Shown: one piece after another, positions 5,106-35,451 of the stretch
How positions within the stretch are numbered: the first letter of the stretch is position 1
Layout of the letters: the number at the start of each line of letters is the position of its first letter
NCBI GenBank assembly: GCA_965213705.1
Contig: OZ243913.1
Span: 3,936,001-4,000,000 of the forward strand
Direction: 5' to 3'
DNA from: Trueperaceae bacterium
GTDB taxonomy: Bacteria; Deinococcota; Deinococci; Deinococcales; Trueperaceae
Length of the DNA: 64,000 nucleotides
Position numbers and translations under genes: made by a program
Notes under the pieces: generated by a model
What the model was told of the DNA's origin: nothing
The model's input: the letters and a program-made list of their open reading frames with translations, nothing else
The model's database searches: none

Positions 5106-7006
5106 AAGGGTTGGGCTCGAGGGGAAACTCGACAAACTGCTTTAACAGACATGCGTAGTGACGGTTGTCGGGTCGTTTTTGTGCGTTTTTTGACCGTGGT
5201 AACCTCGGGGTAAAGTACGCTTGGGAACATCTTCGACTGAGAGGGCGAGCGTGACGACACAACCGCATACCGACCTGAAGTTCTTTACCAACGAACCCGA
5301 CGCCACCCTCTACCACCGCTTCGTTAAAACCCTCGAGTACGCTTCACACTTCGATGTTCTTGTAGGCTACTTCCGCACCAGCGGCTTCCACCGGCTTTAC
5401 CGGGCTTTGGAGCGCACCGAGAAGGTCAGGATTTTGGTCGGCTTGAGCGTAGACCGCAAAGCGTTCGAGATAATTGAACAGGTGCGCGACTCAAGCAGAA
5501 TCGACTTCGAGTCGCATGAACGCACCCGGCAAGTGTTTGTCCGCAACCTCACCACCGAGATGAGCGAGTCGGAGGACACGCCGGAGGTCGAAATCTCCGC
5601 CCGTAAGTTTATCGAGTATTTAGAGTCCGGCAAGCTCGAGCTGCGCGCCTACCCGAGCCGGAACCTGCACGCCAAGGTCTACATTTCGCGCTTTCCCGAG
5701 AATTTCATGGAGTTCGGTAAAGTTATCACCGGCTCGAGCAACTTCTCGGAATCCGGTCTGGTGGCACAGCGCGAGTTCAACGTCGAACTCAAAGACCGCC
5801 CCGACGTGGAGTTTGCCCTTGCAAAGTTCGAAGAACTGTGGGCCGAAGGGGTGGACATTTCTCAGGAGTACGTGGACACGCTGCTCACAAAGACCTGGCT
5901 CTCGGACCAAATCACGCCCTATCAGCTTTACCTCAAGTTTTTGTACGAGTATTTCAAAGAGGACATAAATATAGACGAGGATGTGGACCTCTTTTTGCCT
6001 GAGGGTTATATGGATTTGGCGTACCAGAAGCAGGCGGTGTTAGCAGCTAAGAAAATAATCGAGGCTTATGGTGGCGTGTTCATCGCGGACGTGGTTGGTC
6101 TCGGCAAGACGTTTATCGCGGCGCTGCTTCTGCAGCAACTGCCGGGCCGCAAGCTCGTCATTTGCCCGCCGGTTTTGGCCGACTATTGGAAAGAAACCAT
6201 GCACCAGTTTTACGTGCCGGGTGTCGAGGTGGAGTCTTTGGGCAAGCTCGAGCAAATCTTGGAGCGGGGCGTTGAAAAGTACAGCACGGTCGTCATCGAC
6301 GAGGCGCACCGTTTCCGCAACGAACTCACCCAGGGCTACGAGACGCTTCACAAGATTTGTCGGGGCAAAAAGGTCGTGCTGGTCTCGGCGACGCCCCTGA
6401 ACAACAAGCTCGGCGACATCTTGAGCCAGCTCAAACTGTTCCAACCCGGCAAACAGAGCGCCATCCCCGGCGTGCGCAACTTAGAAGCGTTTTTCAAAAC
6501 GTTGCAGAAAAAGCTCGACAGCGTGGACAAGGACGACCCTTCGTACTTAGAACTGGTCGAAGAAACCTCCAAAGAAGTGCGGGATAAAGTCTTGAAACAC
6601 GTCATGGTACGGCGGACGCGCACCGAAATCAAAAAGTATTTCAGCGACGACTTAGAAAAGCAGGGGCTGCGCTTTCCCGAGCTAGCCAGTCCAGAGCGCA
6701 TCATTTACGAGTTCGACGGCAACATCGAAGAGGTGTTCAACACGACCATCGGTCTATTAAAAAGCTTCACTTACGCCCGCTACACCCCCCTCCTCTACCT
6801 GAAAAAAGGGCTGGGCGAGTTCGAGTTGCAGTCCCAGCGCAACATCGGCGGTTTTATGAAGGGCTTATTGGTGAAGCGTTTGGAGAGCAGCTTTTACGCC
6901 TTCAAGCAAACCGTAGACCGCTTCATCACCTCCTACCAGAACTTTCTTCACATGCTGGAGGGAGGAACCGTCTACATCAGCAAAAAGGTCGGGTAGTGGC
7001 CCACCA

Positions 7007-7423
7007 TCAACTGACAGCAGCACGCTCAAGATTGTAGCGGACCAAGAACAGATGCAAGCAAATGAGGTGCATGTGTTCGGACTTGGAGAAGGATAAGGTC
7101 TTTCTGACAAAGCGCGCTAGGCGTTGGCGGATAGTATTGTTAAAGCGCTCGACGTGTGCTGTAAGCCCTGAGTCTTTACCAACAGCTTGATGCTGTTCAT
7201 CGGGAACGACGGCCTGATAAGCTTCCCAGAAGTCACTAAACACCGTGCCTTGTTTATAAGCATCTGGGATGTTACGCCAAAGTTTTTGACAAGTAGCAAT
7301 GCCACGTCCACCTACAACACAAGCGACCACCTGGCGTGTCTGCTTACAAAGCGCTATCCAGGCCCACCGTTTGTTACGTCTACATCGAACAAATGACCAC
7401 ATCTCGTCGAGTTCGAGTTGCAC
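7007..7423 (-). CDS. insB: IS1 InsB DDE transposase domain (probably fused to InsA by slippage)
   Basis: ELDEMWSFV, SDFWEAY, HVERFNNTIRQRLARFVRKTLSFSKS. Confidence 0.9.
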   Translation of the reverse strand: MQLELDEMWSFVRCRRNKRWAWIALCKQTRQVVACVVGGRGIATCQKLWRNIPDAYKQGTVFSDFWEAYQAVVPDEQHQAVGKDSGLTAHVERFNNTIRQRLARFVRKTLSFSKSEHMHLICLHLFLVRYNLERAAVS

Positions 7424-7457
7424 CGCTTCAGGGTTCTCGGGCGTAACCAGTGTGGCG

Positions 7458-7736
7458 CTAAGCGGCGGTGTCGTCGCGGCTTTTTTTGAGCCATTTCGCT
7501 ATTGTGGTGCGGGACACGCCGAATGTTCTGGTCAGCCCACGCATACTAGAGCGCTCCTGATACGACTTCAGTATCTCATCTTTCTTCGCTTCGCTGTACC
7601 CTTTAGTGCTCGCGTTCTCGCGACTGGACTTGCCGCACGCTCGACACAGGTACTTTTGCTTGCCGTTTGGTGCATGACCGTTCTTGACAAGCTCTTCGCT
7701 CTCGCAGTGGCAGCAACGTACAACTTTGGTGACCAT
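7458..7736 (-). CDS. insA: IS1 InsA (zinc ribbon + HTH)
   Basis: CCHCES..VKNG...GKQKYLCRAC, SMRGLTRTFGVSRTTIAKWLKK. Confidence 0.9.
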   Translation of the reverse strand: MVTKVVRCCHCESEELVKNGHAPNGKQKYLCRACGKSSRENASTKGYSEAKKDEILKSYQERSSMRGLTRTFGVSRTTIAKWLKKSRDDTAA

Positions 7737-10700
7737 TCCTTAGCTTATCAGTCTTTGCTAAACCACTACCAAAGGTCGATGTCTACGACCTGCTGGACGG
7801 GGACGACGAAGAGAGGCTGTTGAGTTTGGTCGAGCAGGACAAGGTACAAAAGTACGCCGCTACCGAGTTCAAGTCCGACTTTGCGACGAAGTTGCGCAGC
7901 GACCTCGCGCTGCTTCAAACCGTGCAAAAGATGTGGCGGCGCATAGAAGACGACCCCAAGTTGGGGGCCTTCGAGCGGGAGCTTACGAAAAACCCGCTGC
8001 TCGAGGACAACAAGGTCATCGTGTTCAGCGAGTCGAAGGAAACGGCTCGCTATCTCTACGAACAGCTTGAAGACCGCTTTCCGAACCAGGTCTGCTTTTA
8101 TGCCAGCGGGGGCGGCGTCTACGGCGGGCAAACTTACAGCGTCGGCGCGGCCAGAGAGCTTATCCAGGCGAACTACAACCCGAACCACAGCAACCCGCGA
8201 GACGATGTCCGCATTCTGATTACCACCGACGTGCTGGCCGAAGGCATCAACCTCCACCGCTCGAACACCGTCGTCAACTACGACCTGCCCTGGAACCCGA
8301 CCCGCGTGCTGCAACGTGTCGGGCGCGTGAACCGCGTCGGCACCGAGCACAAAACCGTCTACGTGTTCAACTTTTTCCCGACCTCGCAGAGTGACGAGCA
8401 CTTAGGGTTAGAGGGCAACATCAAAGCCAAGCTGCAAGCGTTTCACGACACGTTGGGCGAGGACGCCAAGTACCTCTCCAGCGACGAAGAGGTCTCCACC
8501 CACGAGCTTTTCGGCGAGAAGTACGCCGACACGCTTTACCGCAAGCTCACCGACAAGGACGCGCTCGAGGCCGAGGAAGACGAGGCGACCGAACTCAAGT
8601 ACCTCAAACTCATCCGCGAGGTCCGGGACGAACAGCCGGACCTGTTCGAAACCGTCAAACGCCTGCCCAAAAAGGCGCGGAGCGGCAAGACGTGGCCGCA
8701 GGCGGAAAACGGGCAAGACCACCTGCTGACCTTTTTTCGCAAGGGCAAGCTCAAAAAGTTCGTGCTCGGGCGCGGCCAAGGCGAGCCGGTTGAACTCACC
8801 TTTTTGGACGCCGCCAGAATCGTCGCTTGCCGCCCCGAGACCGAGCGGTGCCAGGTGCCGAGTCCCTACTACAGTCTGCTCACGCGCAACAAAGAAGCGT
8901 TCAAACACGTCACCAGCGACGACCCGGTAGACCTGAGCGGCGGGGGCGGCGTGACCAACGAAAAACACATCTTGCAAGTGCTCAAATCCAGGGAGTTTCG
9001 GCACTTCAAGGGCTTTACCGACGAAGACGAACATTTTCTCAAGGCGGTACGCGAGGCGCTCGAGGCCGGATTGGTCGCCAAAAACACCGCCAAGCGCGTC
9101 AAGACCGACCTCAAAAACAGCTTGCAACCGCTCAAAGTCCTGGCCGTGTTGCGCAGAAACTTAGACGTTGCCCAGTTTCGGCAAACGGATGCAGAAGAGC
9201 ACCTGGACCCGCGTGAAGTGATTTTGTCCGAATACCTGGTTAGCAGTGAACCCGTAGGGAGTGAACCAGCATGAGACCCCAAGAAGCCGGCACCTTAGTC
9301 GAGGCCACCTTCAACCACAGCTATGACGAAGGGCGCTTCCGGCTGTTCGCCCGCAACTTGTTCGGCGACTTGGAGGAGAAAAGCGACCGCTGGGCCGGGA
9401 GCTATGTGCCCGAAGCTTTCCGGGGCTTTGTCAGCCAGTACGGGCGCCTGGGCAAGTTCGAGGACGCCGAGGGCTACAGCGTGGACGTGCTGGCCGTGAA
9501 GCTCAAAAGCGCCGCGCAGTTGGAACGCGCCCGTAGCGCCCAGCGCAACTTCATTGCCCGGTACTTAAACGGCGGGCGCGGCGACGTGCTCAGGGACGCC
9601 GCCCTGGTCGCGTTTTACGCCGACGACGACCCCGACTGGCGCTTCTCGCTCGTGCGGATGGACTACAGCCTCGACTTAGAGCACAACAAGCTGCGCAGAG
9701 ACCTCACCCCGGCGCGGCGCTACTCGTTTCTGGTCGGCCCGAGCGAGCGCACCCACACCGCCCAAAAGCAACTTTCCAAAGTCCTGACGGGCGACGCCCT
9801 CCCAACCCTGACCGCCCTCGAGCAAGCCTTCAACATCGAAACCGTCACCAAAGAGTTTTTCGAGAAGTACAAGGAGTTGTTCTTAAACCTCAAAGAGGCG
9901 CTGGACGCGCTGGTAGACGAGAACACGCGCGTCGCGCAAGAGTTCACGGCCAAGGACATCGACACCGCCAACTTCTCAAAACGCCTGCTCGGACAAATCG
10001 TGTTCCTGTACTTTTTGCAGAAAAAGGGCTGGCTGGGCGTGCAGCGTGGTGCGGCCTGGGTCGGCGGTCCCAAAGACTTTTTGCAGCGCCTCTTCGCCGG
10101 TGACTACGTCCGGTACGGCAACTTTTTCAACGACATTTTAGAACCCCTCTTTTACGAAGCCCTGGCCGTGGAGCGCAGCGAGCACTACTATTCCCGCTTC
10201 GACTGCGCCATCCCCTTTTTGAACGGCGGTCTGTTCGAACCCATTGGCGGCTACGACTGGGTGAACGTGGACATCCCGCTAAAGAACGAATTATTTGAGG
10301 ACATCTTCGGCGTGTTCGACCTCTACAACTTCACCGTGCGCGAGGACGAACCGCTCGACAAAGAGGTCGCGGTAGACCCCGAGATGCTGGGCAAGGTGTT
10401 CGAGAACCTGCTGGAAGTCACCGACCGCAAGAGCAGGGGAGCCTTTTACACGCCCCGCGAAATCGTCCACTACATGTGCCGGGAGAGTTTAATCAACTAC
10501 CTGGACACCGCGCTCAACACCGTCAAGCGCCCCTTGGCAAAGCAAGCCGCCAGCCAAGACGCCCTGTTCGGCAAGCCCCAGGCCCGACAAGAACCGTTGT
10601 ATGAAGAGGTCTACGAGGCGCGTGTGCCCAGAGAGGACATAGAAGCGTTCATCCGCTTAGGCGACGTGGCCCAGGAGCACGACGCCACCACGGTTCAAAA

Positions 10701-10888
10701 GGGCAAAGAGACCGAAGCCTACAGCTTCAAAACGCCCGAGAGCATCCGCGGGAGTGCCGGGGCCATCGACGACGCGCTTGCCAGCATTAAAATCTGCGAC
10801 CCGGCCATCGGTTCGGGCGCGTTCCCGGTCGGGATGATGAACGAAATCGTGCGGACACGTTCGGCGCTGACGCCGTACTTAGCTGCGG

Positions 10889-10985
10889 CCCCCCTTAACA
10901 AGGGGGGTTGGGGAGATTTAGCCCAGGCCACTCGAGAAGCAGCCGACAGAAGCAAATCCCCCCTTAGTCCCCCCTTGTTAAGGGG
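10889..10985. repeat. REP-like inverted doublet inside the methyltransferase coding sequence
   Basis: CCCCTTAACAAGGGGGG...GATTT and inverted AAATC...CCCCCCTTGTTAAGGGG. Confidence 0.8.
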
Positions 10986-12070
10986 CGAAGGGAACGGACG
11001 AACCCCCTACGACTTCAAGCGCCACGCGATTCAAGAAAGCATTTACGGCGTGGACATAGACGCGAGCGCGGTGGACATCGCCAAGCTGAGGCTGTGGTTG
11101 TCGCTGGTGGTGGACGAGGACGACTTCGGGACGATTAAGCCGCTGCCGAACTTAGGTTACAAAATCGTCGAAGGCAACTCGGTGTTGAGTTTGGAAGGAG
11201 CCATCACCGACGGGCGTGAAATGCGTGACCTCGAGACCCTCAAACGCGCCTACTTCGGCGAGACCCGCGCCGGCAAAAAGCAAGAACTGAACCGGCGCAT
11301 CGACCAGACCCTCACCAACATCTTCCGGTCGGCGCAAGACTTCGGCTCGAGGGCGAACTTCGACTTTCGCATCCACTTCAGCGAGGTGTTTCACCAGCAG
11401 GGCGGCTTCGACGTGGTGATAGGCAACCCCCCCTACGTGCGCCAAGAAGCGCTGGGCGACTTGAAAGACCTGCTCAAAAAGTACGAGGCGTACCACGGCA
11501 GCGCCGACCTGTTCGTGTACTTTATCGAACTGGGCGTCAAGCTGCTCAAAAAGGGCGGCACGTTTGCCTACATCGTGGCGAACAAGTGGATGCGGGCGAA
11601 CTACGGCAAACCTCTTAGAGCGTGGCTCAAAAAGCAGCAACTTTTAACCATCATCGACTACGGCGACCTGCCCGTGTTCGAGACCGCCACCACCTACCCG
11701 TGCATTTTGTTCGTCGGCAAAGACAAGCCGAACGAAGAGGTGCAAGTGGTCAAGATGGAAGAACTCGCCTTCGAGCACTTGAGTCGCTATGTTGACGAAC
11801 GCAGCTACGCACAGACGCAGAAAGACCTCGAGGACGGCGGTTGGTCACTGGCAAACAGAGACGCGCAGAAGGTACTCGACAAAATAAGCAAGGTCGGCGT
11901 GCCCTTAGAGCAGTATATAGACGGAAAAATCTACCGTGGCGTTCTAACCGGACTCAACGAAGCCTTTGTGATTGACGAAGCAACCAAAAATAAGCTGATA
12001 GCCGAAGACCCCAAAAGCGCCGAAGTCATTAAACCGTTTTTAGCGGGGCGAGACATCAAAAAATTTTCAC

Positions 12071-12110
12071 CGCCGAAAAGCAAAAATTAGATAATTTTTG
12101 CTTTTCGGCG
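12071..12110. repeat. Perfect 19-bp inverted repeat with 2-nt loop, containing the premature stop
   Basis: CGCCGAAAAGCAAAAATTA-GA-TAATTTTTGCTTTTCGGCG. Confidence 0.95.
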
Positions 12111-12743
12111 AAATTTTGACATTGAGGAGTATCCTGCAATTAAAAAACACTTGAGCCAGTTTAAGGACAGACTCACACCCAAACCGAAAGGTTGGACGGG
12201 TGCAGACTGGCAGGGGCGGAAGCCAGGGTCTTATAAGTGGTATGAAATTCAAGACGCAGTTGATTACTATGAAGAGTTTGAAAAGCCTAAAATTATGTAT
12301 CTTGTATTTCAGGTAAGACCCACCTTTACCTTTGACTCGAGCGGAACTTACGGAAATAATGCTATCTGGATTATTCCAAAGGACGATAAATTTTTGCTGG
12401 GAGTTCTCAATTCAAAAATAGGTTGGTTCCTTATTTCTAATTACTGTACTCAAATCCAGAACGGGTATCAGCTTATCTTCAAATACCTCGGTCGAATCCC
12501 CATCCGCACCATCGACCCCTCCAACCCCTCGGACAAGCAAAAACACGATTCTATGGTGGAACGTGTCGAAACCATGCTCGCGCTGCACGAACAAAAGGGG
12601 GCGGCGACGGAGCAGGGCGAGCGCGCCCGCTTGGAGCGGGAGATTGCGGCGACGGATGAACAAATCGACACGCTTGTCTACGAGCTTTACGACCTGACGG
12701 ATGAGGAGATTGCTATGGTCGAAGAAGCGGTGGCGGGGTAGCG

Positions 12744-13519: not shown

Positions 13520-13579
13520 GAACTTTACGACCTGACGGACGAGGAAATTGAGATTCTGGAAGAATCTATCTCTAAATAG
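13520..13579 (+). repeat. Orphan copy 2 of the methyltransferase 3' tail
   Basis: GAACTTTACGACCTGACGGACGAGGAAATTG...TAG = ELYDLTDEEIEILEESISK*. Confidence 0.9.
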
Positions 13580-15772: not shown

Positions 15773-15996
15773 CTTACACATTGAGCCAACCCTGGCGACC
15801 GAGCCACCTATGGGATGGTTAGAATGGTTAACACATGCTGGACCCACAACGACAAAAAGCTACAGAGCAGGGCGAGCGCGCTCGCTTAGAGCGCGAGATT
15901 GCGGCGACGGACGCTGCTATCGACGCGCTTGTTTATGAGCTTTACGACCTGACGGACGAGGAGATTGCTATTGTCGAAAATTCTACAGCGCGGTAA
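15773..15996 (+). pseudogene. Orphan copy 3 of the methyltransferase 3' end (degenerate)
   Basis: Frameshifted IEPxNPGDRATY..MVRMVNT then MLDPQRQKATEQGERARLEREIAATDAAIDALVYELYDLTDEEIAIVENSTAR*, homologous to about 12505-12741; left edge approximate. Confidence 0.88.
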
Positions 15997-35394: not shown

Positions 35395-35451
35395 GACCCC
35401 TCCGCCCTTCAACCCATCCTCCCCTAAAAGGGGAGGATGGGTTGAAGGCGG
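35395..35451. repeat. REP-like element extended to a 20-bp perfect hairpin; probable bidirectional terminator
   Basis: GACCCCTCCGC then CCTTCAACCCATCCTCCCCT-AAA-AGGGGAGGATGGGTTGAAGG. Confidence 0.75.

Follow-up and report, generated by a model that had tools for sequence, protein, structure and literature searches.

How does a restriction-modification gene come to carry a stop codon at the very tip of a perfect hairpin, and could the change that put it there be undone? The question is raised by a putative adenine methyltransferase-specificity gene in the window, by which we mean the whole stretch of 64,000 nucleotides that was analysed. An earlier note on this DNA had described two palindromic arms around a GA loop with an in-frame TAG, and had proposed that a 2-nt micro-inversion of the loop switched the gene off, either as a one-off template-switch knockout or as a reversible, recombinase-free ON/OFF switch. 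When recomputed, the arms were exactly as described: 19 nt each, 100% complementary, with 2 nt between them. The open reading frame from position 9271 is closed by the TAG, and when an X is placed at that codon the frame stays open for 1156 codons to 12741, the length that had been claimed for the inverted loop. Read through in this way the gene contains no other stop or frameshift, and what interrupts it is a stop in frame, with no shift of the reading frame. The minus strand does spell the same peptide, as had been pointed out; this follows from the palindrome itself and is no separate evidence. The features of the locus are collected in Table 1.

Table 1 Features of the methylase locus and its hairpin; positions are those of the window.
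Feature	Position	Strand	Details
Partner PLD-nuclease / SNF2-helicase gene	5221..9274	+	interrupted by IS1; 1089 codons once the insertion is removed
IS1-family element	6992..7770	-	8-bp target duplication, 6984-6991 and 7771-7778
Eco57I / type IIG-like adenine methyltransferase-specificity gene	9271..12741	+	1156 codons; GSGAF at 514, NPPY at 719; A+T-rich target-recognition region
Extended hairpin	12060..12117		stem lengthened by 7 pairs (12060-12066 / 12111-12117) on the far side of a 4-nt bulge, 12067-12070
Left arm of perfect inverted repeat	12071..12089	+	codons P-K-S-K-N and TA of codon 940
In-frame TAG, codon 940	12088..12090	+	upstream of the TaqI_C target-recognition match
Loop GA, 2 nt	12090..12091	+	spans the codon 940/941 boundary (base 3 of 940, base 1 of 941); TC (Tyr-Leu) when inverted
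Right arm of inverted repeat	12092..12110	+	codons I-F-A-F-R-R
R-R-N against R-G in closest homologues	12106..12114	+	one codon extra, near-invariant Gly lost

Matches to the Eco57I and N6_Mtase families lie before the stop and a match to TaqI_C lies after it, and with an X at codon 940 the amino-methyltransferase motifs and the C-terminal target-recognition domain stand in one chain. The PADLOC model REase_MTase_IIG (PDLC03596) matches the whole methylase at 931 bits, and the BREX PglX and DISARM DrmD models place it far below their cut-offs. That match, the GSGAF and NPPY motifs and the C-terminal recognition domain liken the protein to those of type IIG (Eco57I-type), but it differs from them in being paired with a PLD-SNF2 gene and in its N-terminal domain. 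When the PD-(D/E)xK definition was applied to this domain no such nuclease site was found: residues 30-134 hold no conserved (D/E)xK motif across 73 relatives, of which 67 conserve D72. From the lack of this motif, restriction would likely need the partner gene. The recognition region has a G+C content of 42.5%, against 59-60%, and a product truncated at the stop would lack this DNA-recognition end; it is predicted to have no activity. Six Eco57I matches over the cut-off were found in the genome, the methylase with its stop included. The methylase gene also contains an in-frame hairpin insert at window positions 10891-10985, with 17-bp perfect arms, a 61-nt spacer and the peptide APLNKGG...PPLLRG; related copies exist elsewhere in the genome and the insert is common to protein P0123.

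The hairpin itself stands out from its coding background. Across 300 codon shuffles of the methylase gene the longest perfect arm was at most 11, and the hairpin strand folds with a z-score of -9.1, none of 200 shuffles being equally stable. Perfect repeats with an arm of at least 19 and a loop of at most 12 number 24 genome-wide, so the 19-bp repeat is not unique in the genome. Flipping the loop removes a stop with at least 80 open codons on both sides in five of the 328 genome repeats with an arm of at least 12 and a loop of at most 30; among these five the methylase hairpin has by far the longest open flanks (941 and 214 codons), and the other four appear by eye to be intergenic or off-frame. 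The sole other perfect repeat in the window with an arm of at least 14 and a loop of at most 12 lies at 35406-35448, with 20-bp arms and a 3-nt loop.

The two codons that share the loop, 940 and 941, were compared in 240 homologues, namely the best 120 of 3325 longer and the best 120 of 492 shorter matches. The longer matches read YL (71), FL (33), YV (5), HL (4), FV (2), YI (2), WL (2) and YM (1), and the shorter ones YL (60), FL (36), YV (10), HL (5), FV (4), WL (3), YI (1) and YF (1); pooled, the principal counts are YL 131, FL 69, WL 5 and YI 3, with no WI. Leu stands at 941 in 214 of the 240 best matches and in all three of the closest proteins. The closest among the listed homologues, P0124, reads KKFSPPKSKNYLIFAFR; across the loop it has GRDIKKFSPPKSKN-YL-IFAF-RG-FNL, in which both flanks are identical to the window and enclose precisely the Y-L that a flip would give, and it is 85% identical to the window protein over residues 900-1010. 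A single inversion restores both Tyr and Leu, whereas point mutation would need two events, which favours the flip. A Trp-to-stop origin was rejected on the absence of W-I among the 240 best matches, and on these sequences a simple change of that kind is a very unlikely source of the TAG. The micro-inversion proposed earlier is thus supported: the homologues read Y-L or F-L and not W-I, the closest protein combines identical flanks with Y-L, and the Trp pattern that was named as speaking against it was looked for and not seen in the 240.

Whether the arms are older than the flip can be judged from the peptide, as the arms are codon-aligned and the residues on either side can be scored for reverse-complement compatibility. 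This was possible in 237 of the 240 proteins, three being unparsed. All six flanking codon pairs were compatible only in P0124, P0012 and P0062 (3 of 237), and among shuffled pairings in 10 of 20000. The three proteins are kin and count as one event. A hairpin-compatible peptide hence persists in three relatives with open frames; that of P0124 allows a perfect arm of 21 bp at this loop, and two of the three read F-L-V, which breaks the innermost pairs. Distant homologues are without the hairpin, the longest perfect arm being at most 8 in 61 of 61 and 99 of 99 distinct DNA segments, a score that covers the segments parsed by our patterns and leaves out loci that did not fit them. The earlier note had expected homologues with imperfect arms; this is borne out by the distant ones, while the three closest proteins fit near-perfect arms. 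At the level of coding potential it is likely that the arms predate the flip. This order also fits yeast, where spacer inversions of 2-5 bp are described between arms longer than 9 bp, nine of ten on arms that were already perfect (accessible text of PMC8604942). The protein-level evidence would place the homogenisation of the arms, in the open state, in the common ancestor of P0124, P0012 and P0062.

DNA of the closest relatives was searched for by degenerate pattern scans, which gave no match in metagenome and genome contigs and one unrelated match in viral contigs. An allele with the window's hairpin was likewise not found in scans of related loci (80 of 393 loci and 79 of 570 kept), in genome searches (41, 128, 363 and 128 genomes) or among plasmids (94 records, all below 60% identity), and the same-genus genome G001 gave no match with the queries used. 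The opposite orientation of the spacer is indicated at the protein level by P0124, and otherwise at one junction of run X2, described below. P0124 shares its flanks, not its recognition region, with a gene of genome G004. We also considered F-A-F and K-F-S as template-switch products private to this gene; the idea was dropped, as P0124 has both and locus L100 reads F-A-F-R-G without a hairpin.

One change next to the loop does appear private. None of the 240 best-match homologues has the extra residue of R-R-N, and 237 of them keep the Gly. The bases of R-R-N add pairs to the hairpin stem, and the change may have come from the same template switch as the flip or from a second one. Neither the longer stem nor the inserted codon had been described in the earlier note. 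Lying beside the loop, the change means that a back-flip would open the frame again but not bring back the ancestral protein; as translated, the flipped-back protein differs next to the loop from every one of the 240 best matches.

The state of the loop in the sampled population was examined in the contigs of four listed sequencing runs. Two runs from one sample, X1 and X2, cover the stretch; X1 is possibly the assembly's own source. X3 gave no matching contig and X4 two unrelated pieces only. In X1 the hairpin is spanned by a single contig of 1484 nt, which has GA and shows no difference from the window. In X2 (depth about 500) a left-flank contig with GA ends at 12100, and the next contig starts at 12081 with two letters different. 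The first 30 bases of this second contig are exactly the minus strand of 12071-12100 and are followed by the right flank; in this contig the right flank is thus attached to a TC loop. The ends of the X2 contigs sit where a two-state graph of 31-mers predicts, and words of 31 letters do resolve the hairpin, 22 junction words being state-specific. If the remainder of their contig has a depth of 500, the GA entry words in X2 average about 309, a possible depletion that would fit a large TC fraction, as a weak hint. None of the listed contigs contains the left-flank TC junction or the GA exit of X2; these missing junctions would be explained by assembler pruning.

In this one sample a TC junction is seen in X2 only, and X1 shows GA alone. 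The TC junction may represent either unflipped or re-flipped molecules of the population or a library artefact; being a single junction from one run, set beside the GA of X1, it neither proves nor refutes reversibility. Two further observations had been named earlier as refuting: a GA loop that is an assembly artefact, against the proposal as such, and the absence of TC from deep data, against reversibility. GA is present in two sets of contigs assembled from raw reads, and one run (X2) has a TC junction among its contigs. In both runs, over window positions 11954-12548, there are also contigs of depth 2-3 that match the flanks of the recognition region and diverge over the 442 nt between; these are a related allele with another recognition domain from the same sample.

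The surroundings of the gene bear on what its loss would mean. Without the IS1 the partner gene runs through its codons with no stop. The genome has eight further IS1 copies, 99.6-100% identical, and, judged by the intact 8-bp duplication and these near-identical copies, the insertion is recent. Of 79 relative loci, 61 match the PLD-SNF2 partner with both of its halves, as do 38 of the 41 long ones. Interrupted relatives of the methylase exist as well: a 92% identical one leaves the frame at residue 579, where a sequencing error is possible, and a close full-length one (L094:10800-12060) has its recognition region interrupted by a transposase-like insert. Protein P0062 carries at residues 711-829 an in-frame domain like REP-associated tyrosine transposases (NF047646, 43.5 bits, below the cut-off of 80), and contig C1 of genome G000 begins and ends inside one IS1 copy. 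Relic copies of the methylase 3' end (ELYDLTDEEI) were found in the window at 13520-13568 and 15859-15995, flanking cargo genes (ParE-like, DUF2281, AlbA-ATPase-HTH and a Gp49/HTH pair); such ends resemble the outcome of serial exchange at the end of the gene. Given the A+T-rich recognition region, the downstream relic ends and the flank-only sharing between P0124 and the G004 gene, the locus resembles a defence slot of high turnover. Recombinase families were not detected among the 12 neighbouring ORFs scanned.

Relatives of the locus were also surveyed for similar hairpins (153 distinct loci of 165). Repeats with an arm of at least 12 number 12 in the 416,632 bp of their methylase-matching DNA and 9 in the 763,564 bp of the other long frames; most of the 12 appear by eye to be in-frame REP-type hairpins. 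No second stop-state case was found in the 153 loci (0 of 12 repeats), and two of the 12 would gain an in-frame stop if flipped (L162:7806-7834 and L171:8449-8481, both perfect hairpins in open methylase genes). With nine flippable loops, the numbers are too few to call an enrichment.

We consider it probable that a template-switch inversion of the spacer, on an inherited perfect hairpin, created the nonsense codon in a locus that was already losing its function. Replication would have jumped from one arm to the other as its template and read the loop in reverse, so that Tyr-Leu became stop-Ile. The hairpin itself would be older, formed through copying of the same kind in a small gene lineage and carried in the open state, and the knockout was probably tolerated with the partner helicase-nuclease broken by IS1 and other methylases in the genome. 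A reverse flip would be possible in principle, at rates presumably like those of mutation. Nothing points to selection for switching. Several observations count against this reading: in X2, the deeper run, the junction of TC with the right flank displaced that of GA, and the GA entry words may be depleted; the hairpin-compatible peptide persists in three open-frame relatives; the gene is otherwise free of stops and frameshifts; and two relative loci hold hairpins that a flip would turn into an in-frame stop, in methylase-matching DNA that has more such repeats than other long frames. An ordinary point mutation of a Trp or Tyr codon to TAG within the hairpin, after a separate Leu-to-Ile change, could draw on the Y-I (3) and W-L (5) pairs among the 240 best matches, and a Tyr-Ile state could itself form a loop-less palindrome; this history takes two events in place of one flip, W-I is absent, and the Leu kept at 941 by most homologues and by the three closest proteins makes it highly improbable. 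The GA could also be a sequencing or assembly artefact at the hairpin, in a population that is mainly TC, with the gene intact, or mixed. The preparation of libraries is known to alter the centres of palindromes (PMC6941819, PMC10908179), the TC junction survives in the deeper run, and X1 might be the source of the assembly itself, but 31-letter words with their state-specific junctions resolve the hairpin, GA is found in the spanning contig of X1 and at high depth at the left junction of X2, and palindrome artefacts, in the accessible text of those reports, are minority calls near read ends. We regard this account as decidedly unlikely.

A working phase switch without a recombinase would keep the hairpin and let flips of the loop toggle the methylase-specificity subunit ON and OFF, with both states maintained. 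The OFF state would be safe if methylation and restriction alike take their specificity from the subunit. In favour of such a switch are the lack of a conserved (D/E)xK in the 73 relatives, the PLD-SNF2 partner of most long loci, the TC junction of X2, the contig ends placed exactly where a two-state graph has them and the hairpin-compatible peptide common to three open-frame relatives. Against it stand the partner gene broken by IS1, an ON product with R-R-N for R-G that has no counterpart among the 240 best matches, the F-L-V that breaks the innermost pairs in two of the three relatives, and the GA-only X1 with the left-flank TC junction in no listed contig. Known phase variation, moreover, runs at about 1e-3 per division (PMC11475388), and no such rate for loop flips was found in the accessible literature. 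Such a switch is unlikely here. Equally doubtful is the broader proposal of a phase variation free of repeat tracts and recombinases, in which a self-repairing hairpin flips its 2-nt tip between a sense pair and a stop, both states are common in the wild population, and the hairpin is inherited with a swappable recognition domain (P0124, P0012, P0062). Of the two outcomes that the earlier note had offered, the template-switch knockout is supported and the reversible switch is not borne out, because TC is seen at one junction, the partner is IS-broken and the flipped-back protein is unlike every homologue.

As a natural bacterial example of a nonsense codon made by a loop flip, the inherited-hairpin knockout is unusually clean, since it comes with a near-identical relative in open frame and with public runs in which the states can be counted. 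It makes a standing question directly testable, namely whether template-switch flips happen often enough at long perfect hairpins to serve for ON/OFF switching. If they do, there would be a class of phase-variable genes that searches for repeat tracts and invertases cannot see; if they do not, a defence locus that is dying has suffered an ordinary knockout, and the case warns that variants at palindrome centres in metagenome data can be artefacts. No usable rate of loop flips is given in the accessible text of PMC7202029. Searches of the accessible literature, mostly outside the subscription journals and without supplements, listed no paper in which a methyltransferase is phase-variable through a hairpin tip.

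Spacer inversion is a known and reversible type of mutation. The nearest precedent is the intermolecular template-switch spacer inversion in coding DNA (Abraham and Hazkani-Covo 2021, PMC8604942), of which the accessible text describes perfect arms above 9 bp around short spacers, as with the 19 bp and 2 nt found here, and two adjacent codons changed at once. There too the arms were likely perfect beforehand, and the yeast inversions are reversible and need no adaptive cause. The present case differs in lying in a bacterial restriction-modification gene, in its arm extension and one-codon insertion, and in that one state is a stop, whereas that study removed gene sets with premature stops. Homogenisation of inverted-repeat arms is described in bacteria (PMC5941160, accessible text). 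Artefacts of library preparation, in which several bases change at the centre of a palindrome and reads become chimeric with the opposite strand (PMC6941819, PMC10908179, as far as accessible), share the signature of the TC junction in X2, but explain minority reads and not a majority GA or the pattern among homologues. Intragenic invertons (PMC10028968) also toggle a premature stop by inversion between inverted repeats inside a gene; in the accessible text they are proposed to be driven by invertases, with an example of 57 bp, whereas the segment here is 2 nt, with no recombinase in the 12 neighbouring ORFs, and of the two TC junctions expected when both flanks occur in both orientations the contigs show one. 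Phasevarions (PMC11475388, PMC12707154) likewise set a restriction-modification methyltransferase ON or OFF by a small change within the gene; in the accessible parts of these reports they do so by slippage of repeat tracts, which shifts the frame, or by recombinase shuffling of repeats, unlike the in-frame stop at a hairpin tip. By analogy, the resemblance to stop-making invertons and phasevarions would be one of outcome only, and the working of the locus would be that of the known spacer inversions.
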